From a virus, in UHGV virus genome UHGV-1747598: 10,864 bases of DNA; one strand, given 5' to 3'. Positions within the stretch are counted from its first letter, which is position 1. Each line of letters starts with the position of its first letter. Positions 1,281 to 10,864 of the stretch are shown here, piece by piece. The position numbers were made by a program, and so were the translations under genes. The notes under the pieces were generated by a model that worked only from the letters and a program-made list of their open reading frames with translations, had not been told where the DNA came from and searched no databases.

Positions 1281-1775
1281 ATGGCCATGATGATGATCTA
1301 CGGCATGTTTGTTTTTGAGCTGCGTACGTTGCCGCATCAGCAGTTACAGCAAAACAAAAGCTGGCGGCATGTGAAAAATGAACGCGTTAACCGTTCAGCA
1401 AGCTGGCAGTATATCGGGGCAGGCGATGATCGCATCGTTCTTTCTGGTGTGCTTTATCCTGAAATTACAGGTGGCGAAGTGTCGCTTTCGTTGCTGACCA
1501 CGCAGGCATATACAGGACGCCCCTGGCCTCTGATTGATGGTGTCGGGCAGATTTACGGCATGTATGTCCTGACCGGAACGAATACGACCCGCTCCGAGTT
1601 TGATCGCTACGGTAAGGCGAAAAAGATAGAATTTTCACTGACTCTTGAACGCTGTGATGAGGATTTGCGGGAGCGCCTGCAATCCTCATCGTTCAGTGAT
1701 ATGCTGTCCGGCTTCAAAGATAAGGTCACATCATCCCTTAACAGCGCGGCCAGCTCCGTTAAAGGGCTGTTTTGA
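1281..1775 (+). CDS. Phage tail protein U-like (P2 gpU family)
   Basis: 164-aa ORF with ATG at 1281 preceded by GAGGAG. The N-terminal GMFVFE..TLPHQ motif and the GVLYPE.TGG motif match my recollection of the P2 gpU family. Size and position after the tape measure fit. Confidence 0.7.
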   Translation: MAMMMIYGMFVFELRTLPHQQLQQNKSWRHVKNERVNRSASWQYIGAGDDRIVLSGVLYPEITGGEVSLSLLTTQAYTGRPWPLIDGVGQIYGMYVLTGTNTTRSEFDRYGKAKKIEFSLTLERCDEDLRERLQSSSFSDMLSGFKDKVTSSLNSAASSVKGLF

Positions 1776-1782
1776 TTAACGC

Positions 1783-1812
1783 AAAACCGCTAATGGTCAG
1801 ATTAGCGGTTTT
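1783..1812. terminator. Bidirectional intrinsic terminator hairpin between convergent gpU and invertase genes
   Basis: Perfect inverted repeat AAAACCGCTAAT (1783-1794), loop GGTCAG, ATTAGCGGTTTT (1801-1812), followed by a T-rich tract on + and with the A-run giving a U-run on the - transcript. It lies 8 nt after the gpU stop and overlaps the invertase stop codon (1802-1804). Confidence 0.55.
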
Positions 1813-2401
1813 CATTTTCCTGAGTCTGCCTGGTTGTTTCTTCAGCCTGTATATCGCCTACAGGGTGATAACGATAAATCGTCGATATGCCGATGTCGTA
1901 AATGATCGCCAGTTGTTTCCTGTCATGACCGTTTTTAATCAGCCTCGCTATTTGCTCGTGTTGTTCTTTTGTCAACTTCGGGCGACGTCCGCCAATGCGT
2001 CCTTGTGCGCGTGCTGCTGCCAGCCCGGCCAGTGTACGCTCTACAATTAATTCACGTTCCATTTCGGCTAAAGCCCCCATGACGTGAAAAAAGAAACGCC
2101 CCATGGGTGTTGATGTGTCAATGCTGTCCGTCAGACTACGGAAATTAACACCTTTTTCCCGCAATTCCTCAATAAGCGTGATCAGGTGTTTCATACTTCT
2201 GCCCAGTCTGTCCAGCTTCCAGACAACCAGCGTATCTCCTTCTGATAGCGTTCTGAGCAGTTTTTTCAATCCCGGTCTGGCTGATTTCGTTCCGCTGATT
2301 TTATCTTCAAAAATCAGTTCACATCCTGCGCAGTTCAGTGCATTGCGTTGTAAATCCGTGTTCTGGTCATTTGTTGACACACGAATATAGCCAATTTGCA
2401 T
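1802..2401 (-). CDS. Serine DNA invertase, Hin/Gin/Pin/Cin (Din) family
   Basis: The 199-aa product begins MQIGYIRVSTNDQNTDLQRNAL and contains VVWKLDRLGRS, SLTDSIDTS, GRFFFHVMGALAEMERELIVERT and a C-terminal HTH (GISTIYRY), all hallmark motifs I recall from Hin/Gin. The true start is the ATG at 2401-2399, preceded by AGAGGA; the 264-aa ORF in the track is read-through into the upstream crossover-site region. Confidence 0.9.
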   Translation of the reverse strand: MQIGYIRVSTNDQNTDLQRNALNCAGCELIFEDKISGTKSARPGLKKLLRTLSEGDTLVVWKLDRLGRSMKHLITLIEELREKGVNFRSLTDSIDTSTPMGRFFFHVMGALAEMERELIVERTLAGLAAARAQGRIGGRRPKLTKEQHEQIARLIKNGHDRKQLAIIYDIGISTIYRYHPVGDIQAEETTRQTQENENR

Positions 2402-2455
2402 AAAAAACATCCTCTTTGTTTCGTGAAAAATACATAGTTGGTATAGGTAGGGATA

Positions 2456-2481
2456 AAGACGAAAACGTTGGTTTGGGGGAA
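2456..2481 (+). other. Invertase crossover site 1 (hix/gix-like, 12-2-12)
   Basis: AAGACGAAAACG-TT-GGTTTGGGGGAA. It resembles the gix/hix architecture (..AAACC-NN-GGTTT..) as I recall it. It lies about 55 bp upstream of the invertase start, at the 5' boundary of cassette A. Confidence 0.6.
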
Positions 2482-2901
2482 GGCTCTGCGCTGCCCGTTG
2501 GTGTGCCCGTTCCATGGCCCTCAGCCACGCTGCCAACGGGGTGGCTGAAATGTAACGGCGCAGCATTTTCTTCTGAAATGTACCCCAATCTGGCAAAGGC
2601 CTACCCCGCCAATAAATTACCGGATTTACGGGGCGAATTTATTCGTGGCTGGGATGATGGACGTGGTGTGGACAATGGGAGAGCATTATTAAGCAGCCAA
2701 GAGGCTACAAATTTTTCTCAGCGTGCCGGAAATATAGGCGATGGTGCGGGCCACGCAATTAATTTTCATGATGGCATAGTCGGAAATCAGCCAGGATTTT
2801 CACGATTTAATTTCACCAGTAACTCTGTAGGCGATGGTATAAATTATGTTGCTGTCAGGCCGCGAAATATCGCATTTAATTACATCGTAAGGGCAGCATG
2901 A
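2470..2901 (+). CDS. Silent alternative tail-fiber C-terminal cassette A (no start codon of its own)
   Basis: The translation GSALPVGVPVPWPSATLPTGWLKCNGAAFSSEMYPNLAKAYPANKLPDLRGEFIRGWDDGRGVD...RPRNIAFNYIVRAA is near-identical at both ends to the C-terminus of the H tail fiber, with a different central block. It begins at crossover site 1 and ends with TGA at 2899-2901. Confidence 0.7.
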   Translation, partial: GLGEGSALPVGVPVPWPSATLPTGWLKCNGAAFSSEMYPNLAKAYPANKLPDLRGEFIRGWDDGRGVDNGRALLSSQEATNFSQRAGNIGDGAGHAINFHDGIVGNQPGFSRFNFTSNSVGDGINYVAVRPRNIAFNYIVRAA

Positions 2902-2920
2902 AAACGTTGGTTTGGGGAAA
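2895..2920 (+). other. Invertase crossover site 2 (hix/gix-like)
   Basis: AGCATGAAAACG-TT-GGTTTGGGGAAA. The stop codon of cassette A (TGA) is embedded in its left half-site. Same orientation as site 1. Confidence 0.6.
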
Positions 2921-3388
2921 GGCTCGGCGCTGCCCGTTGGTGTACCTGTTCCGTGGCCCTCAGCTACTCCACCAACGGGCTGGCTGAAATGCAACGGCGC
3001 AGCATTTTCTTCTGAAAAGTATCCCAAACTGGCACAGGCTTACCCCGCGAACAAATTACCGGATTTACGCGGTGAATTTATCCGTGGCTGGGATGATGGG
3101 CGAGGAATTGATGCAGCACGCGCTTTATTGAGCATTCAAACCGGGATGTTGGAAAAACACCGCCATATTGTTGTAGCTAACGATAGATATGACACAAAGG
3201 ATGAATGGGAGTTGGCCACGATTTTCAAAAAAACATATACACAAGGCAGGGGGCTTGATGCCACAAATACAGGAGGGAGTTTGATTCCATCACCAACGCT
3301 TCATTCACGAGGAAGTATTGGTAACACAGGTGGTAGTGAAACCCGCCCCCGCAATATTGCATTTAACTATATCGTGAGGGCGTCTTAG
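2909..3388 (+). CDS. Silent alternative tail-fiber C-terminal cassette B
   Basis: It has the same conserved 5' block (GSALPVGVPVPWPSATPPTGWLKCNGAAFSSEKYPKLAQAYPANKLPDLRGEFIRGWDDGRGID) and the same 3' motif (RPRNIAFNYIVRAS), with a distinct central region. Stop TAG at 3386-3388. Confidence 0.7.
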   Translation, partial: GLGKGSALPVGVPVPWPSATPPTGWLKCNGAAFSSEKYPKLAQAYPANKLPDLRGEFIRGWDDGRGIDAARALLSIQTGMLEKHRHIVVANDRYDTKDEWELATIFKKTYTQGRGLDATNTGGSLIPSPTLHSRGSIGNTGGSETRPRNIAFNYIVRAS

Positions 3389-3394
3389 TTATAT

Positions 3395-4006
3395 TCAACT
3401 GGCTGCTGCCAGTGGTATTTCCGGCCAGTTGATATCTGGTGCCATGTTTATATCCATTGCGTTCAGTGCGTCTATATAATCCAGCACGGCGTTAAGCCGG
3501 GTGGTTTCTGCCTGCGTCAACTTCCGCCCGGCCTGCAACTTCAACTGAATCAGACTTACGGAAGCCATTGCCGCATCAGCCAGTGACTGGCGCTTGGTTT
3601 CTGCCGCTTCTACTGCGGCACCATGTTGTGCCTCAGTATCTGTCACCCATTTTTCACCATCCCATTTATCGTATGGTGTTAACGGGGCGATAGTGGTTGT
3701 ATTTTTCGGGTAGTCACCCAGCGTCGTGATTTCTTCGGTGTTTCCCGTGTCAGTGTTATAGACGGTTTCACCACGATGGTCTGGCGCATACTCCCATGAA
3801 CTTAAATTCTCCGAACGGCGGATAGCATAGCCCGCTTTATGTGCGCCCGGGGCATCTAAACAGGAATTTGCCGGAATACCGACACCCACAGCAAGATATT
3901 CAGTTGATTCGGAAATATATTCCCGTGTTTCACCATCATAGTTATAAACGACGATGTTTCCTGCCTGTACGGCAATAAGGTCATCATTTAATATCGCGTT
4001 ATTCAT
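3395..4006 (-). CDS. Tail fiber assembly protein (Tfa chaperone)
   Basis: The 203-aa product (MNNAILNDDL...VYNYDGETREYIS...YAPDHRGETVYNTDTG...PYDKWDGEKWVTDTEAQH...) looks like the Tfa proteins encoded next to tail fiber genes in lambdoid, Mu and P2-like phages. Its ATG overlaps the stop of cassette C as TAATG. Confidence 0.8.
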   Translation of the reverse strand: MNNAILNDDLIAVQAGNIVVYNYDGETREYISESTEYLAVGVGIPANSCLDAPGAHKAGYAIRRSENLSSWEYAPDHRGETVYNTDTGNTEEITTLGDYPKNTTTIAPLTPYDKWDGEKWVTDTEAQHGAAVEAAETKRQSLADAAMASVSLIQLKLQAGRKLTQAETTRLNAVLDYIDALNAMDINMAPDINWPEIPLAAAS

Positions 4007-4467
4007 TATGCGGTTCTCACAATATAATTGAAGGCAATATTGCGTGGGCGGCTTTCATTCCCATCTGAGGATTCCGTTCTGTATTGACTGGTAAATCTAC
4101 CGTTAATTGCACCTTGCCAGACGGCGTTATCTGTCGACAACAGACTATCCCCTCCTTTGTCATTTGGCACCAGTACCGTGTTATCCCACGCGTCCCATGA
4201 CCGAATATTATGATAATGACTTCCTGTTAACCACCCCTGCATGCTTAAGATGCCCCTTCTGGCATCCACCCCGCGCCCATCATCCCAGCCACGGATAAAT
4301 TCACCGCGTAAATCCGGTAATTTATTGGTGGGGTAGGCTTTTGCCAGTTTGGGGTACATTTCAGAAGAAAATGCTGCACCGTTACATTTCAGCCAGCCCG
4401 TTGGTGGTGTTGCTGAGGGCCACGGAACGGGCACACCAACGGGCAGTGCAGAACCTTCTCCTAAACC
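4006..4467 (-). CDS. Silent alternative tail-fiber C-terminal cassette C, translationally coupled to tfa
   Basis: Translation NVGLGEGSALPVGVPVPWPSATPPTGWLKCNGAAFSSEMYPKLAKAYPTNKLPDLRGEFIRGWDDGRGVD...RPRNIAFNYIVRTA. It follows the stop of the active cassette and crossover site 3, and has no independent start. Confidence 0.7.
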   Translation of the reverse strand, partial: GLGEGSALPVGVPVPWPSATPPTGWLKCNGAAFSSEMYPKLAKAYPTNKLPDLRGEFIRGWDDGRGVDARRGILSMQGWLTGSHYHNIRSWDAWDNTVLVPNDKGGDSLLSTDNAVWQGAINGRFTSQYRTESSDGNESRPRNIAFNYIVRTA

Positions 4468-4481
4468 AACGTTTTCATGCT
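4456..4481 (-). other. Invertase crossover site 3 (hix/gix-like)
   Basis: On the - strand this reads AGCATGAAAACG-TT-GGTTTAGGAGAA. The stop codon of the active H gene (TGA, 4477-4475) is embedded in its left half. It is inverted relative to sites 1 and 2. Confidence 0.6.
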
Positions 4482-6115
4482 GCCCTTACGATGTAATTAA
4501 ATGCAACGTTGCGAGGGCGAGTTTCTGTACCTACATTTCCACTAATTTTACCAAACCGTTTTACATTACGAGAGCTAATGGCTCGTAGTGAGGAAGGCAC
4601 CTTTAAACCGGGTTCGTCTGTTTTAACTATTCCCCCGTCCCCGTATGTAGCCAGTATTCCAGGGTTTACTCCTTCCCGTGTACTTCCCGCGGCAAGTCCA
4701 TCCCCGGTCCATAATTCCATATAGTGTGCATGATCCAAAATTGTGTGTGGCTGCCAATTAAGCAAAGCGCGGCCAGCATCCACCCCGCGCCCATCATCCC
4801 AGCCGCGAATAAATTCTCCCCGTAAATCCGGTAATTTATTGGCGGGGTAGGCCTTTGCCAGATTGGGGTACATTTCAGAAGAAAATGCTGCTCCGTTACA
4901 TTTCAGCCAGCCCGTTGGTGGTGTGGCTGAGGGCCATGGAACAGGCACACCAACGGGCAGTGCAGAGCCTCCCCCCAAACCAAGGTAATCAAGAACTCCC
5001 TGAGTGCTGGTTTTACCAAGAATGGCACGTCCAACACTTGTCAACGCGGTTAACGCGGCACGATCTGCCCCTGTAAAATATGGGAGTTTATCTGCTGATG
5101 TAGCAAGCTCCGCCAGCGCCGTCAGGGTGGCATCCTTCGGTTGCTTACCCGCAAGCGCGTTAGTCATGGTGGTCGCAAAATTCGGGTCATTGCCCAGCGC
5201 CGCAGCCAGTTCGTTCAGCGTGTTCAGTGCATCAGGTGACGAATCTACAAGTGCGGCAATCGCGGCCATAACGAAAGCCGTGCTTGCGATCTGGGTACTA
5301 TTAGCCCCCTGTGGCGCTGTTGGTGTTGTTGGCGTTCCGGTCAGTGCCGGGCTGTTTAATGGTGCTTTCTTGTTCGTTTCATCCATTACCGCCTTAACAG
5401 CTTTTGGTGTCGCTGCCAGCGTTTCAGACGTGCTGTTCGTGGCGCTACTGAGCTGAACAATCCCTTTTTGTGTAGTGGTGGCGTTCCGGGCGGTATATTT
5501 CCCGTTAGCCAGGTCATATGCAGCCTTAACCGCTTTCGGTGTTGCGGCCAGTGTTTCTGATTCACTGTTAATTGCACTGCTTAACTGAGTAAAACCTTTT
5601 ACGGTCAGCGAGGCGTCCGGGTGACGTCGTGATTGTTCGTGCTCTGATATTTTATCATCCACATATTTGCGGGTTGCCAGAACCACAGACGGGTCGATTT
5701 TCAGCGTGATGGCTTCGGTGTTCGTGACAACCAGAATCATGCGGATAGTCTGGGTGCGTCCACTGCCTTCCTGCAACTGCGGTTTGTACGTTTCCGGGCA
5801 GTTTGCCACCGCAATGAGTACACCTTCATCATCATAAAGACCAATCTCACGGATCCAGAATCCTCCCTCGTTTTCAGGGATGATTTGCTCCGCAATAATC
5901 TGGCTCTGATTGTTAGGGTCAACACTCAGAAGATTCAGCGGTGCAATGCGTTTCTGGTTAATCAGTTTTGTTTGTGCAGGGTCTGGTGTTGGTAACACAC
6001 CATTTGCATCACCAACGGCCATTTGCGTCAGATTCAGCTTACTGCCGAGCATCGTCGCGTTAGCCAGTCGTGCCGCGCCCTGATTAGTCAGAATGGCGTA
6101 GTATTTCACTGTCAT
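4475..6115 (-). CDS. Tail fiber protein H (P2 gpH-like constant N-terminal region fused to the currently active C-terminal cassette D, about 4475-4982)
   Basis: The 546-aa product starts MTVKYYAILTNQGAARLANA...MAVGDANG and contains EHEQSRRHPDASLTVKGFTQLSSA and the twice-repeated SETLAATPKAVKA motif, which match my memory of P2 gpH. The C-terminal 166 aa carry the shared cassette blocks. Its ATG overlaps the gpI stop as ATGA. Confidence 0.85.
   Translation of the reverse strand: MTVKYYAILTNQGAARLANATMLGSKLNLTQMAVGDANGVLPTPDPAQTKLINQKRIAPLNLLSVDPNNQSQIIAEQIIPENEGGFWIREIGLYDDEGVLIAVANCPETYKPQLQEGSGRTQTIRMILVVTNTEAITLKIDPSVVLATRKYVDDKISEHEQSRRHPDASLTVKGFTQLSSAINSESETLAATPKAVKAAYDLANGKYTARNATTTQKGIVQLSSATNSTSETLAATPKAVKAVMDETNKKAPLNSPALTGTPTTPTAPQGANSTQIASTAFVMAAIAALVDSSPDALNTLNELAAALGNDPNFATTMTNALAGKQPKDATLTALAELATSADKLPYFTGADRAALTALTSVGRAILGKTSTQGVLDYLGLGGGSALPVGVPVPWPSATPPTGWLKCNGAAFSSEMYPNLAKAYPANKLPDLRGEFIRGWDDGRGVDAGRALLNWQPHTILDHAHYMELWTGDGLAAGSTREGVNPGILATYGDGGIVKTDEPGLKVPSSLRAISSRNVKRFGKISGNVGTETRPRNVAFNYIVRAA
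4970..4995 (-). other. Invertase crossover site 4 (hix/gix-like), inside the tail fiber gene at the constant/variable junction
   Basis: On the - strand this reads TTCTTGATTACC-TT-GGTTTGGGGGGA, encoding ...LDYLGLGG.... The central TT occupies the same codon positions as in cassette sites 1-3. Confidence 0.6.
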
Positions 6116-6720
6116 GCGTTTACTCTCAGATTATCAATTAAATGAATGGCCGGGGCAGGGAAATAATCCCCTTCGACAATAATGGACTCCGGGGTGTAGG
6201 GATAAACCGTCAGGGCATCGCCGTGATAGCATCCCGTACCAACGAAAATCTTTCCGTTCACACTCAGGCTGATCGCCAGCCCCGTCAGATGGCGACTTAC
6301 TGGTTTTGCATCCGCAATAAGGCGCTCAAGTTCCTGATACATTTCATCGGTGATGCCCTGATCAAGTACTCCGACAACAATGCGAAATGTTCCTGGCTCC
6401 TCGTTGAGTTGCCACCACTCCTTTACTTCAATCAGGTAGCCGAGAGGCTCCACGGCTCTTCGCAGTGCGCTGATGGTCCCTTTGTGTCGGTGTATCAGCC
6501 ATGCATCACGAATCACCTGTCGCTTTGTCTCTTCCGGCCAGTTGCGATCCCAGCGGTCAACGGAAAACGCCCAGGCGAGATAAGGCAGCAGATGCGCCGG
6601 GCATGTGTCCGGCGACCACAGCGTGTTGAGGTCTACCGGAATGTCTGTAATGCGTGTTCCGACGGCTTCGGCGCAACGCATGAAATTGCTGGCTGATGGT
6701 GGTAACAACGAATTACTCAT
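6112..6720 (-). CDS. Baseplate/tail protein I (P2 gpI-like)
   Basis: Product contains WSPDTCPAHLLPYLAWAFSVDRWD, HKGTISALRRAVEPLGY and ADAKPVSRHL, as I recall for gpI. The likely start is the ATG at 6720, which overlaps the gpJ stop (ATGAGTAA), rather than the longer ORF listed from 6753. Confidence 0.8.
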   Translation of the reverse strand: MSNSLLPPSASNFMRCAEAVGTRITDIPVDLNTLWSPDTCPAHLLPYLAWAFSVDRWDRNWPEETKRQVIRDAWLIHRHKGTISALRRAVEPLGYLIEVKEWWQLNEEPGTFRIVVGVLDQGITDEMYQELERLIADAKPVSRHLTGLAISLSVNGKIFVGTGCYHGDALTVYPYTPESIIVEGDYFPAPAIHLIDNLRVNA

Positions 6721-7609
6721 TGCGCCCACCTTCGCTGATGGTGAATGACTCACAGCACGCCGCCTGTATGTCGCTGATGGCCATATTCTGTGTGGGTTCG
6801 ATTATCTCCACGCGTTGCACACCGTGCACATGCAGTGCGGCAGCAATGGCGGACAACGCCACGTCCTGACCGATAAGCCCCTGTTCAGCCAGCCACTTCC
6901 TGAACGACGATTCAGCCGCGGCCAGAATAGGTTCGGATTCCGGGCCGGGGTAAAAGTACAGTTTTGCATTCAGCCGCCATGTCACGATTCTGGCGCTCTG
7001 TACGGTCAGGCGGTCGGCCACCGGGCGGGTATCCTCTGCATTCAGAACGGCGCGAACGGTATTAAGCAACGCCTCCGTTGCTGTGCCGTCGCCTTCAGTG
7101 GACAGAATGGAAACCGTCACACAGGCCGGAGACGGGCTGATGGCCCGCGCATCACGCACCAGACCGCTGGCGCTGCGTGCAAAATACTCGTATGCGCCTG
7201 ACGGGCCAGCAACACTCAGGCCGTCGTACGCCCGCTGCGCCCGCAATCTCAGCGAGGTGTCGCTCTCCATCACCGCGTCGGTGGTATCCGTTGCCGGAGT
7301 GATAACCAGGCGCTTTGTGTTCATATTGCCCGCGAGGTTGTCCAGGTTTGTCCCTGAACCGTGGCTTAACATGCAGGCGCGTGCGCCCTCGTTAACCCGC
7401 TGGCGTAACAGCATTTCACGAAAAGACATGGTTTGAGCGATAACGTTCAGGGGTTCCGATTCCAGCTCCAGCGCGGCGGAGACGGCTTCACGCTGTTCGG
7501 CAGGATAGGACGCAATCATCATGGCCTTTGTGTCAGCCAGAATTGCTTCAAAATCAGGCTCCGCGATGATGGCGGGTTCCGGTAACTGGGAAAGGTCAAC
7601 GGCAGGCAT
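6713..7609 (-). CDS. Baseplate assembly protein J (P2 gpJ-like)
   Basis: 298 aa, the size of gpJ, with its position between the W and I homologs conserved. Confidence 0.8.
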   Translation of the reverse strand: MPAVDLSQLPEPAIIAEPDFEAILADTKAMMIASYPAEQREAVSAALELESEPLNVIAQTMSFREMLLRQRVNEGARACMLSHGSGTNLDNLAGNMNTKRLVITPATDTTDAVMESDTSLRLRAQRAYDGLSVAGPSGAYEYFARSASGLVRDARAISPSPACVTVSILSTEGDGTATEALLNTVRAVLNAEDTRPVADRLTVQSARIVTWRLNAKLYFYPGPESEPILAAAESSFRKWLAEQGLIGQDVALSAIAAALHVHGVQRVEIIEPTQNMAISDIQAACCESFTISEGGRNE

Positions 7610-7612
7610 GAT

Positions 7613-7963
7613 TTACTCCCTCAGCGTGATGGTTAATTCAACATTCTGCATGGTCTGCATGACAGTGCCCGACAGAGTCACCCCGGCGCGGCCTCCTGCC
7701 TTCCAGACAACGTCGATGGCGTCCAGGGCAATGCGGGGTTCCCATCGTGTCAGCGCAATCACGGCAGCACTCATGCATTGCAGACGAGTTGTGTTATTCA
7801 TGGGTTCGTCAATCAAATCAGGCACAAGGCTGCCATATTCCCGTCGCATAACCCGGCTTGCCAGCGGGGTGATCAGGATGTCCCTGACTGACTGTTTCAG
7901 GTGCTCCATATCGTTCAGGTTTCCCGTCCCGTCCGGATTCATTCCTGTGTAGCGGGTTGTCAC
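7613..7963 (-). CDS. Baseplate wedge protein W (GPW/gp25 family)
   Basis: 116 aa with the conserved order V-W-J. Its start overlaps the gpV stop by 4 nt. Confidence 0.8.
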   Translation of the reverse strand: MTTRYTGMNPDGTGNLNDMEHLKQSVRDILITPLASRVMRREYGSLVPDLIDEPMNNTTRLQCMSAAVIALTRWEPRIALDAIDVVWKAGGRAGVTLSGTVMQTMQNVELTITLRE

Positions 7964-8541
7964 TGCGGGCCTCCTGTCGAATCGCTGCCGCCTTTCACGC
8001 CACCGTGTTTATGCGTATGCACTGTGATGCCGTTTGAGGTGAAGTTGCCGCCGCTGTGCGTGATATTGCCGCTCATCTTTCCTCCTTTTGTGACGTCAAG
8101 CGTCGCCGTTCTCAGAAGGTTTGTGCATTCCACGACGGGCGTGTCCAGTTTCACGCTGACGGATGCCTGTAAAGTGGCCGTTTTCATGCCGCTGGCGCTC
8201 AGTGCGCCAGCGTCTGCGTCGTAGCGGAACACCGCGCCGTCCGGCGCGCTGATCACGATTTCTTTCAGGCTTTTGCCGGGGGCCGGACTGGCATCACTCC
8301 ACAGGCTGCCAATTATCATGGCGGTTTCCGGGTTGCCGCCAATGCAGGCAATTACCACCTGTTCGCCTGGTGATGGCGGCAGCCACACATTGAAGGCTCC
8401 CGCGCGCGTGGTGTTCCAGCGCAGCCAGCCTGTTTCCAGTTCGCCGCTGCGAACGCGCACGCGCCAGGACTTCTCATCAACTTCAGAGATGATCCCGGTG
8501 CGGATGATATTGCTCAGCAGTCGCATGAGTTCTGCGCTCAC
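7960..8541 (-). CDS. Baseplate spike/assembly protein V (P2 gpV-like)
   Basis: 193-aa product with an N-terminal OB-fold-like region and a Gly-rich C-terminus (GGKMSGNITHSGGNFTSNGITVHTHKHGG), typical of gpV spikes. Its start overlaps the upstream gene stop by 4 nt. Confidence 0.8.
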   Translation of the reverse strand: MSAELMRLLSNIIRTGIISEVDEKSWRVRVRSGELETGWLRWNTTRAGAFNVWLPPSPGEQVVIACIGGNPETAMIIGSLWSDASPAPGKSLKEIVISAPDGAVFRYDADAGALSASGMKTATLQASVSVKLDTPVVECTNLLRTATLDVTKGGKMSGNITHSGGNFTSNGITVHTHKHGGVKGGSDSTGGPQ

Positions 8542-9173
8542 CGTACAGCCTCCGCAATCCGGCCCAGCACCGTGTTATAAATCAGGCGCTCATCTGCCTG
8601 GCTGATACCCAGCAGCTCACGTACCGGGTAATCGGTGAAAATGCCCGGCGCAACCTGATCGCGCTCACCGAACTGATGAACGCGGGCAATACGTGCGGCC
8701 ACGCCGCTGTAACCCACCGTCACACCGGAAGCATCTGCACGGGCTTTCAGGTAGCGGGCGGTGCGCAGTTTTACAAACATGGGGACGCGCTTTGTGCTGT
8801 CCTGGTTGATGCGCCGGGTGCGTATTTCCAGAAAACGGTCGATGTCATCCCGGTAAAACGTGCGGATATTGTTTTTATCCTCATCCCACCCGGTAATGGT
8901 TCGCCCGTATTTCCCCGTGTCGTGATGCCAGTTTTTCAGCGTGCGTGCTTCGTTATTCCAGATAAAGCGAATGCGCTCCTGTATCCGGGTTACGCGGCGT
9001 CTGCGTGGTGTCCATTCGGTCCCGTCCGGCGCTTTTTGTGATCGGATACGTGCCTGCTGGGCGCGACGTAAATCCTGTGCCAGCTTTCTGGCGATGTTAT
9101 TGATGGCCTGCTGATTCAGGCTGTCGCGGATAGCCTCAAAGGTTTCATCCACGCTGGTGAATGCCTTATCCAT
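8538..9173 (-). CDS. Phage virion morphogenesis / tail completion protein (gpS-like)
   Basis: It occupies the gpS position between the R and V homologs. The likely start is the ATG at 9173, which overlaps the gpR stop (ATGGATAA). The basic, Arg-rich product fits my impression of the virion-morphogenesis family. Confidence 0.55.
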   Translation of the reverse strand: MDKAFTSVDETFEAIRDSLNQQAINNIARKLAQDLRRAQQARIRSQKAPDGTEWTPRRRRVTRIQERIRFIWNNEARTLKNWHHDTGKYGRTITGWDEDKNNIRTFYRDDIDRFLEIRTRRINQDSTKRVPMFVKLRTARYLKARADASGVTVGYSGVAARIARVHQFGERDQVAPGIFTDYPVRELLGISQADERLIYNTVLGRIAEAVR

Positions 9174-9633
9174 CGCTTTCACCCCACGTCACATCCTGGA
9201 ATACATGCGACCAGTCGCCTTCGGAAGAGGGCAGACGGGGTTTTGGCTCCGGCAGGTGTTCTGCCTGCGGTGTGCCCTGACTGTTGCGCGTGATGCGAAC
9301 GCGTTCCCGCAGGGGGAGCGTAAACAGGAGATCGGCGCTGTCATCGTCATTGATAACGGCAGAAAATTTGATGTCCTGATTACGCTCCGGATTGAGCAAC
9401 AACTGTGGCTGATTTTCGGATAACCACGCCAGCAGCGGCAGCGTGAGGTCGTCCAGCTCTCCGGCGTAATCCATGACAAACATCACCATCTGATAGCGGT
9501 AAACAAACGAGGGCGCTTCTCCGGTCGTTTCAATGTTGCCGCTCTCCACGAAAATGGTGAATTTCTCGGGATTAGCCTGGCACCACCGACACCCATGAAG
9601 CATGGACTCTCGCAGACTGTTTGTCTTAAGCAT
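9166..9633 (-). CDS. Tail completion protein R (P2 gpR-like)
   Basis: 155 aa, the size of P2 gpR. N-terminal MLK..SLR and the central LPLLAWL.ENQP motif match my recollection of gpR. GGAGAG RBS upstream. Confidence 0.65.
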   Translation of the reverse strand: MLKTNSLRESMLHGCRWCQANPEKFTIFVESGNIETTGEAPSFVYRYQMVMFVMDYAGELDDLTLPLLAWLSENQPQLLLNPERNQDIKFSAVINDDDSADLLFTLPLRERVRITRNSQGTPQAEHLPEPKPRLPSSEGDWSHVFQDVTWGESDG

Positions 9634-9656: not shown

Positions 9657-10864
9657 TTATGCTGCGGGATTATTGATTTCCAGCACCAGGCTGCCGATAT
9701 CGACGCCGTACGCGGCATTTTTAGTGATATCAGTTAACGTCAGCGCATTCAGCCCCAGTGTCAGACTGTCTTTTATGACCTGGAATGCCGGGCCAGCCAC
9801 TCCATTCAGTTTCGGAGTAACCGTGGCACTGCCGGCGGTGAACACCAGCTCCAGCGTCTGCCAGTCGTTACTGTAATTCCCGAACTCGCCCAACTTTGTG
9901 TTTCCTGCTTTCTTGTGATGCATCAGATTCAGTTTGCCGTCTGTGGTCTGGGTGAAGAACGACATCAGGAACGGGTTACCAGTCCCGGTCATCGCCACGA
10001 CGTCAGGTAACGCTACATCGGTATACAGATAAATTCCCAGACCGAACTGATTGTTGGTCAGTGCGCCTGACAGTCGAAACTTACAGCTCAGTCTGCCACC
10101 CCGTGTCAGCAGGGAGACTGCGTCATCCACCGGATGCATCAGGGACCAGGTTTTATTGCTCTGCTTGGTAACCTTAAACACACCATCTTCCAGCGCAACA
10201 CTGCCGCCGGTGATGGTCCAGCCCTGCGCAGCAGCCTCTCCGGCTGTCGGCAGCAGGGAGACTGTACGAACGGATGTGTCACCATCAGACGGCCCCGATG
10301 GCGTGTCGCCGCCGGGCGAGGGTTTAATCTCCGGTGCGGTACCGCTGATGAAGGCGCTGGTTCGACCAACTGCGTTCAGAATAGCGGTTGCCAGGCGATC
10401 CGAAATAATGCCCCTGCGCGCCCATGAACTGAAATGTGTCGGACGATTTGACGATACCCAATTACCATTACTACGGGATTGCGCGCCGTAATAACCTGCA
10501 TCAGCAATATCCGGGTCTTCTGCCGGTAAGTTGGTGGGCGTGTTGTTGCCGTTACCGTCGGTCATGAACGGCACAAAGAAAACGTTGTCGCTCTCCCTGT
10601 TTTTGTACGCGCCGTAGACGGAGTCATACTGTGTGCCGTATGTGTTTTTCCAGTAATACGTCGTGTCGCCACAAATCCACGGTACAACTGCAGCACTGCC
10701 GCCATGGCACTGCGCGTTAAATCCGGAAAGGTCAGTACGGAACTGCTTCAGCATGGCCGTGAACAGGTCCGGTTGCTGTGCGTAGGTGGCAGCGCTCATG
10801 TCAAATTCGCCCTGCATCCAGCACACCGCCAGCAACACATTTTTCGGGTTCTTCTGTAATGCAG
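9657..10864 (-). CDS. Partial CDS (N-terminus outside window): C-terminal part of a NanS-like sialate O-acetylesterase domain fused to a beta-rich, lectin-like C-terminal domain
   Basis: The frame is open to the window edge. Motifs CWMQGEFD, PWICGDTTYYWK, PAEDPD and HFSSWARRGIISDR resemble what I recall of E. coli NanS and prophage NanS-p esterases. The C-terminal ~200 aa are Gly/Thr-rich. It ends 23 bp upstream of gpR in the same orientation. Confidence 0.4.
   Translation of the reverse strand, partial: ALQKNPKNVLLAVCWMQGEFDMSAATYAQQPDLFTAMLKQFRTDLSGFNAQCHGGSAAVVPWICGDTTYYWKNTYGTQYDSVYGAYKNRESDNVFFVPFMTDGNGNNTPTNLPAEDPDIADAGYYGAQSRSNGNWVSSNRPTHFSSWARRGIISDRLATAILNAVGRTSAFISGTAPEIKPSPGGDTPSGPSDGDTSVRTVSLLPTAGEAAAQGWTITGGSVALEDGVFKVTKQSNKTWSLMHPVDDAVSLLTRGGRLSCKFRLSGALTNNQFGLGIYLYTDVALPDVVAMTGTGNPFLMSFFTQTTDGKLNLMHHKKAGNTKLGEFGNYSNDWQTLELVFTAGSATVTPKLNGVAGPAFQVIKDSLTLGLNALTLTDITKNAAYGVDIGSLVLEINNPAA

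Follow-up and report, generated by a model that had tools for sequence, protein, structure and literature searches.

How can a single chaperone gene serve four alternative tail-fibre tips when it is coupled to one of them only and lies antisense to others? The question is raised by the viral genome UHGV-1747598, a 10,864-nt stretch of DNA (referred to in its full length as the window) that represents the tail module of a P2-like Escherichia coli prophage, in which one tail-fibre assembly gene, tfa, is located among four alternative 3' cassettes (A to D) of the tail-fibre gene H. A preliminary description had reported that this single tfa overlaps the stop of silent cassette C (TAATG), lies about 470 bp downstream of the active cassette D and ends 6 bp from the stop of cassette B. 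All of these coordinates hold: the tfa ATG (4006-4004) and the TAA stop of cassette C (4008-4006) have one base in common, and the stop of H and cassette D (4475-4477) is 469 bp upstream of the tfa ATG, leaving a 469-bp untranslated spacer between D and tfa in the window's isomer, with direct coupling to tfa for C only and with B convergent. The contrast drawn with Mu (S-U / U'-S') and e14 (stfP-tfaP / tfaE-stfE), each of which has one tfa per tip, was likewise borne out. Our analysis favours a Min/Pin-type switch with one Tfa that is generic for four collar-type tips and able to act in trans, to which we assign a probability of roughly 0.6. In this mechanism a serine invertase would recombine four 26-bp sites and so fuse any one of the four collar-type tips to the constant part of H, and a single Tfa of the lambda Tfa / TfaE type would read constant features of the tips and thereby serve A, B, C and D in trans.

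The tfa product matched the tail fibre assembly protein family (Caudo_TAP, PF02413) with 112 bits against a cutoff of 22 and aligns with lambda Tfa along its whole length (36% identity over 188 aa; E 4e-37), which identifies it by homology as a chaperone of the lambda Tfa / e14 TfaE type. A PDB sequence search with the window Tfa returned no significant match, and Mu Tfa was not detected by it. No second tfa was found in the window, where the A/B side runs directly into the invertase, gpU and gpT. The preliminary description had raised the possibility of further tfa-like genes beyond the window; none was found across 22 kb of the syntenic prophage in the AR_0013 chromosome (the closest match, with 97.9% identity across 95% of the window), where tfa is again single.

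The Pfam Collar domain was detected in all four cassettes (E 1e-13 to 1e-15), which have in common repeats of 216-279 nt with 84-92% identity, far above chance, and the crossover sites are embedded in these repeats. Cassette D aligned with the T4 gp37 tip (PDB 2XGF; E 7e-18) over the collar N-part, the HxH stretch (DHAHYMELWTG against EHSHYIEAWNG) and the C-terminal NIAFNYIVR strand, and it also matched the C-terminus of lambda Stf. By homology each cassette is a small tip of the T4 gp37 / lambda Stf type, in which a variable insert of 77-102 aa is set between a constant collar and a constant returning strand. The HxH motif is present in B, C and D; the insert of cassette A (2700-2860), like the related type T12, has none, unlike B, C, D and T4 gp37. 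The likeness to T4 gp37 + gp38 and to lambda Stf + Tfa extends to the gene order of lambda, in which the chaperone gene is directly downstream and the stf stop overlaps the tfa start, as at the C-tfa junction of the window. The T4 and lambda modules, however, have no inversion and combine one tip with one chaperone, and the inserts of the window are much shorter.

Whether one Tfa could serve such different inserts was judged from 80 IMG/VR loci encoding relatives of the window Tfa, which were mapped and displayed two architectures. Group I (Tfa at least 82% identical to that of the window) has the window's design and combines 2 to about 10 collar cassettes with a single tfa, which in all cases has a 1-nt overlap with the upstream cassette and a convergent cassette a few bases away. 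Group II (Tfa 77-82% identical) has an e14/Mu-like two-cassette segment, in which a collar tip is paired with a window-type Tfa at one end, and another tip at the opposite end has an unrelated tfa of its own. The variable inserts fell into at least 23 mutually unalignable types, and tfa directly follows at least 15 of them (B, C, D, T3, T5, T6, T8, T9, T13, T14, T17, T18, T21, T22 and T23). The Tfa proteins behind these at least 15 types are nevertheless 86-96% identical to each other. Tfa identity is 90.5% between cassette types (95.6% in the C-terminal third) compared to 94.8% within a type, and in the alignment the differences between types are scattered conservative substitutions with no variable patch. 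In the two-cassette (e14-like) loci, tips of the B type (78-94% identical to window B) and of the D type (90-93% identical to window D) each have a tfa immediately behind them and in translational coupling. Since a near-identical Tfa stands after at least 15 unrelated inserts, it is most likely a generic chaperone acting in trans, with recognition probably directed at the collar that all tips share and at the C-terminal ...RPRNIAFNYIVRA element, not at the variable insert. Recognition of a shared feature, one of the options left by the preliminary description, is in this way well supported, also by the homology to lambda Tfa. There is a published precedent for such a Tfa serving tips with different inserts, in that lambda Tfa can reportedly take the place of T4 gp38 when gp37 folds (Montag et al., 1989, cited in PMC9659904). 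In Mu (Tfa) and Pam3 (gp25) the chaperone binds the distal C-terminal part of the fibre (PMC9608196), which fits recognition of the constant C-terminal strand. From this evidence we infer that Tfa acts in trans on all four tips.

The region itself is, by its sequence, a Min/Pin-type multiple-inversion system for a P2-type tail-fibre tip; at the window's locus one isomer is known, and the evidence for inversion comes from relatives. A serine invertase of the Hin/Gin/Cin/Pin/Min family, with its true ATG at position 2401 and 91-97% identity in the aligned parts to that of a P1-like phage-plasmid, adjoins the cassettes. The four 26-bp hix-like sites share a TT core, stand one at the start of each cassette, two in plus and two in minus orientation, and match the consensus quoted in PMC4134206 (Table 3); the equivalent of crossover site D is an inversion endpoint in strain E2348/69. 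Each site consists of a left half and a right half, the latter belonging to a cassette. The blocks of A and D contain one cassette each, start with a right half and carry a left half across the stop codon; C, tfa and reversed B together form a two-ended block with a right half at each end. H and the invertase flank both end in a left half, therefore only one two-ended block is possible, and forward single blocks must precede it and reversed ones follow it. The resulting order (H, forward single blocks, one two-ended block, reversed single blocks, invertase) is obeyed by all natural maps.

Enumeration from the window's state gave 12 isomers, six with tfa in sense with H and six with tfa antisense. 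Throughout these isomers tfa always follows C and never B, and A and D are each split 2:2. The preliminary description had regarded tfa as misoriented for both A and B. This is correct for B, to which tfa is always antisense, and half correct for A, which has tfa in sense in two of its four expressing isomers; the D side, with tfa antisense in two of the four D-expressing isomers, had been missed. The simulated fusion of H to B was in frame, as expected of an inversion that joins alternative 3' cassettes to a constant 5' part. The two-ended block looks like an e14-type P segment (stfP-tfaP / tfaE-stfE) with one tfa and not two, and the TAATG coupling to C would be the ancestral cassette-tfa arrangement and not a sign that Tfa serves C alone. 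The left half of the internal sites (AGCATGAAAACG; 2895-2906 and 4470-4481) overlaps the stop of the preceding cassette (GCA GCA TGA), and the end of each single-cassette block thus coincides with its stop. Up to GCATGA the sequence is that of the cassette-tfa junction (GCATGATG) in two-cassette loci, a hint that cassette-tfa units gave rise to the single-cassette blocks.

Isomers with antisense tfa exist in nature. Synthetic junction queries against complete E. coli genomes found H-(X)-B followed by antisense tfa in 27 genomes, contiguous direct H-B fusions among them, and H-(X)-C-tfa in sense in 42. Two assemblies of E2348/69 (L084 and L085) were identical over 10 kb save for an exact 1928-bp inversion, with no mismatches, between the outermost sites, which turns H-C-tfa (sense) into H-X-B with tfa antisense. 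With both orientations on record, E2348/69 is a ready model for studying Tfa supply when tfa is antisense. The RefSeq annotations of the two assemblies disagree on the silent cassette of the three-cassette segment, calling it a pseudogene in one and a normal coding sequence in the other. In the EC958 Phi2 prophage, whose crossover sites match those of the window, inversion was seen directly in PacBio reads (PMC4134206).

A block of cassette, tfa and convergent cassette with one tfa and 2 to about 10 cassettes was found in 28 IMG/VR and E. coli loci, and the 1-nt overlap was present at 66 of 66 cassette-to-tfa junctions. In multi-cassette loci tfa was coupled to C in 24 of 25 cases and once to T18. 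The layout also occurs in P1-like elements, among them pR15_MCR-1 (in which the 1-nt overlap and the short convergent gap were measured) and the phage-plasmid vB_EcoM-673R5, and a search for it matched 255 plasmid records. The segment of pMCR_SCKP-LL83 is 99% identical to the p15B min region and has one 612-bp tfaE among about seven small cassette open reading frames (PMC5786510). On these sequence comparisons the single-tfa layout is old and widespread, and the window is the P2-like-prophage case of the Min/Pin multiple-inversion family; the novelty implied by the preliminary description was overstated, as the single-tfa design is that of p15B Min and is common. The p15B Min system and the P1-like phage-plasmids have in common with the window a Pin/Min-type serine invertase, 26-bp sites within repeats of about 200 bp, several collar-type 3' cassettes that are swapped onto a constant 5' fibre gene, and one 612-nt tfa with a 1-nt overlap with one cassette and a convergent cassette facing it. 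The window differs in belonging to a P2-like chromosomal prophage and not to a P1-like plasmid, in its P2 H-like constant part, in having four cassettes and sites compared to six or more, and in the FI-U late operon that converges on the region. The Min system of p15B is said to have been the subject of work by Sandmeier and co-workers from 1990 to 1992, and in the 1992 work its isomers reportedly gave host-range variation.

The e14 Pin (stfP-tfaP / tfaE-stfE-pinE) and EC958 Phi2-type systems likewise have a TfaE-type Tfa (about 78-80% identity), a collar-type stfE-like tip with a 1-nt overlap and the same crossover consensus (...ACCTT GGTTTAGGAGAA). Segments of the e14 type, however, contain two cassettes and two tfa, one per orientation, whereas the window lacks a tfa dedicated to B, the cassette on the second side, and contains additional single-cassette blocks that have none. 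In the Mu G segment and the P1 C segment a serine invertase also swaps fibre 3' ends, and the Tfa gene is within the invertible DNA, but the Mu G segment has two sites, two tips and two dedicated tfa (U and U'), unlike the single tfa of the window. Compared to such systems, a two-state tip switch would have been expanded to a many-state switch without duplication of the chaperone gene. Sharing one chaperone among many tips should be feasible only where the chaperone reads a feature that is constant among them, and for host-range engineering this suggests the use of one Tfa with interchangeable inserts of 77-112 aa, flanked by a collar and a C-terminal strand that stay fixed.

A candidate two-tfa locus (L004, 5274-7900) was rejected, as it is a palindromic duplication of the whole block of B, tfa and C, in which the collar segments overlap and the two copies are not separated by a proper site. 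It is most likely a mis-assembly of two isomers, an artefact of which PMC4134206 warns. In the record of vB_EcoM-673R5 (L083; 6002-6522 and 8091-8689) 'Hin1' and 'Hin2' are given as separate genes for the one invertase, and tfa and several cassettes are frameshifted, which looks like sequencing error in the record and not biology.

Several results weigh against a generic Tfa acting in trans, most of them concerning how tfa would be expressed when it is not behind a translated cassette. A scan of 1700-6300 for a tfa promoter with the sigma-70 consensus found five sites compared to 5.9 expected, which is background, and the best candidate of a position weight matrix scan, CTGGCA-17-TAAATT, which lies within the conserved collar segment of A, C and D, is matched in score by 20 others in the window. 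The Shine-Dalgarno sequence of tfa is supplied by the conserved V-R-A codons of the cassette (GTGAGGGC) and is weakened to GAGA behind C, and all 66 cassette-tfa junctions are built for translational coupling; little Tfa is therefore expected from isomers that do not translate C, among them the H-D isomer of the window. The 6-bp gap between B and tfa, which is conserved in short form in relatives, leaves no room for a terminator, and H-B transcripts should run antisense through tfa. Mu and Ur-lambda Tfa reportedly stay on the virion (PMC9608196), which, if applicable here, would mean that Tfa is needed in stoichiometric amounts. No A-type cassette was seen directly upstream of a tfa in 84 loci. 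Finally, at 97% identity or more the Tfa variants cluster by cassette type, which we attribute to linkage of adjacent genes, with slight co-adaptation as a conceivable addition.

These expression data are the strength of the best of the alternatives, which we nevertheless regard as unlikely: that Tfa works only when in sense downstream of H, so that functional fibres are scarce or lacking in every H-B isomer and in half of those with H-A or H-D. The reversed-block isomers would then be wasteful or 'off' states, tolerated since inversion is cheap and reversible. The universal 1-nt coupling with a weak independent Shine-Dalgarno sequence, the lack of a detectable tfa promoter in the scans and the antisense H-B transcripts all agree with it, and the natural isomers do not contradict it, since silent prophage isomers are unselected and their presence in genomes says nothing on function. 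Against it, the B cassettes convergent with tfa were intact in all 17 unique haplotypes, with no stops and with a ratio of nonsynonymous to synonymous differences (pN/pS) of 0.19 compared to 0.49 for tfa (pairwise counts, which are not independent), and the design persists in both P2-like and P1-like elements; the host-range variation that p15B Min isomers reportedly gave also counts against it. The argument from selection is in turn weakened by recombination between loci, which shows in the weakly correlated divergence of B and tfa (r = 0.28) and which means that some of the constraint may stem from other contexts.

It is less likely still that C alone needs the chaperone, with A, B and D folding unaided or with host chaperones and the position of tfa being irrelevant to them. 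In T4, mutations in gene 37 can bypass gp38. The sole coupling of tfa to C in multi-cassette loci (but for the one case with T18) is in keeping with such a requirement, and A, without HxH, may be a simpler fold. The coupling of B- and D-type tips to tfa in two-cassette loci would, however, be hard to explain if these tips did not use Tfa.

Integrity was assessed in 163 evaluable cassettes across the 84 loci, a cassette being counted as intact if it also ended in the C-terminal motif. By this measure 157 of the 163 were intact, and four of the six broken ones came from one error-prone assembly in which the invertase and tfa are frameshifted too. The variable inserts displayed a pN/pS of 0.12-0.25 with a proportion of synonymous differences (pS) of up to 0.2-0.3; the variable part of B in group I had a pN/pS of 0.12 at a pS of 0.21. 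The silent cassettes are intact and under purifying selection, not decaying. That A and B are decaying, non-functional archive copies, an option raised in the preliminary description and in keeping with their silence in the window's isomer and with the fact that B can never have tfa in cis in sense, is very improbable in view of this integrity, the low pN/pS of the inserts (0.12-0.19 for B) and the H-B fusions in complete genomes. The comparative data answer half of the puzzle, namely that Tfa is generic and the cassettes are not decaying, and the puzzle applies to the whole family.

For the other half, candidate sources of Tfa in the six antisense isomers under a generic Tfa are weak transcription within the cassettes, read-through from the FI-U operon, or a low requirement for Tfa. 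The FI-FII-E-T-U tail operon (60-1812) is inverted compared to canonical P2 and faces the late operon at 4475-9633, so that two late operons converge on the invertase and cassette region, with the hairpin at 1783-1812 standing between the FI-U side and this region. Because the V-W-J-I-H and FI-FII-E-T-U operons converge, tfa is always co-oriented with one of them. The orientation of the two-ended block could conceivably be a regulatory layer, in which FI-U read-through past the hairpin supplies tfa in the antisense isomers or a Tfa-rich state alternates with a Tfa-poor one, although we consider this improbable; if true, block orientation would alter fibre yield or tip composition, and one inversion would control both the tip and the chaperone supply. 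As a general source FI-U read-through fails: no such operon exists in P1-like hosts, and two-tfa segments occur on the same backbone as well. The convergent FI-U operon was also considered, and rejected, as an adaptation to a single tfa: a two-tfa segment occurs on the same backbone (L034), and the P1-like hosts have no convergent operon.

The features of the region are listed in Table 1. On the minus strand the window encodes gpR, gpS, gpV, gpW, gpJ and gpI followed by the 546-aa gpH-type fibre gene (4475-6115), and on the plus strand the end of the tape-measure gene and then gpU. The invertase, cassettes A and B, tfa, cassette C and cassette D (the 3' end of H) are located between these two converging operons.

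Table 1. Features of the invertible tail-fibre region of UHGV-1747598, in order of position in the window.
Feature	Position	Strand	Details
Hairpin between gpU (+) and invertase (-)	1783-1812		Probable bidirectional terminator
Serine DNA invertase, Pin/Min/Hin family, 199 aa	1802-2401	-	Pfam Resolvase E 1.5e-51 and HTH_7
Crossover site A, outermost, beside invertase	2456-2481	+	AAGACGAAAACG TT GGTTTGGGGGAA
Cassette A, silent, single-cassette invertible block	2470-2901	+	Pfam Collar; insert without HxH motif
Crossover site B, left half overlapping cassette A stop	2895-2920	+	AGCATGAAAACG TT GGTTTGGGGAAA
Cassette B, silent, convergent with tfa and in same invertible block	2909-3388	+	Pfam Collar
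Gap between convergent stops of B (3386-3388, +) and tfa (3395-3397, -)	3389-3394		6 bp
tfa, only tail-fibre assembly gene, 203 aa	3395-4006	-	Pfam Caudo_TAP (PF02413) E 2.8e-32
Cassette C, silent	4006-4467	-	Collar N-part, HxH-containing insert, C-terminal NIAFNYIVR strand
Crossover site C, left half overlapping cassette D stop	4456-4481	-	AGCATGAAAACG TT GGTTTAGGAGAA
Cassette D, fused to H, expressed form, 3' end of 546-aa fibre gene	4475-4981	-	Pfam Collar
Crossover site D, junction of constant H and cassette	4970-4995	-	TTCTTGATTACC TT GGTTTGGGGGGA
Constant 5' part of tail-fibre gene H	4984-6115	-	Pfam Phage_tail_fib E 1.8e-62 and Phage_fiber_2 repeats

A TGT-N12-ACA dyad (2418-2435), located between the outermost crossover site and the ATG of the invertase, was also observed in P1-like relatives. 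It has the shape of P2/P4 Ogr-dependent late-promoter elements. As an Ogr-type late promoter it was rejected, since there is no -10 element at the expected distance, and it is probably a chance occurrence; its conservation is uninformative because the whole module is about 89% identical. At the other end of the window, a gene with a DUF6645 domain (Pfam E 1.2e-19; 9657-10864, minus strand) lies between gpR and the lysis genes and runs past the window end. Its length in AR_0013 is 1881 nt; it is missing from the otherwise syntenic E2348/69 prophage and is probably a cargo gene.

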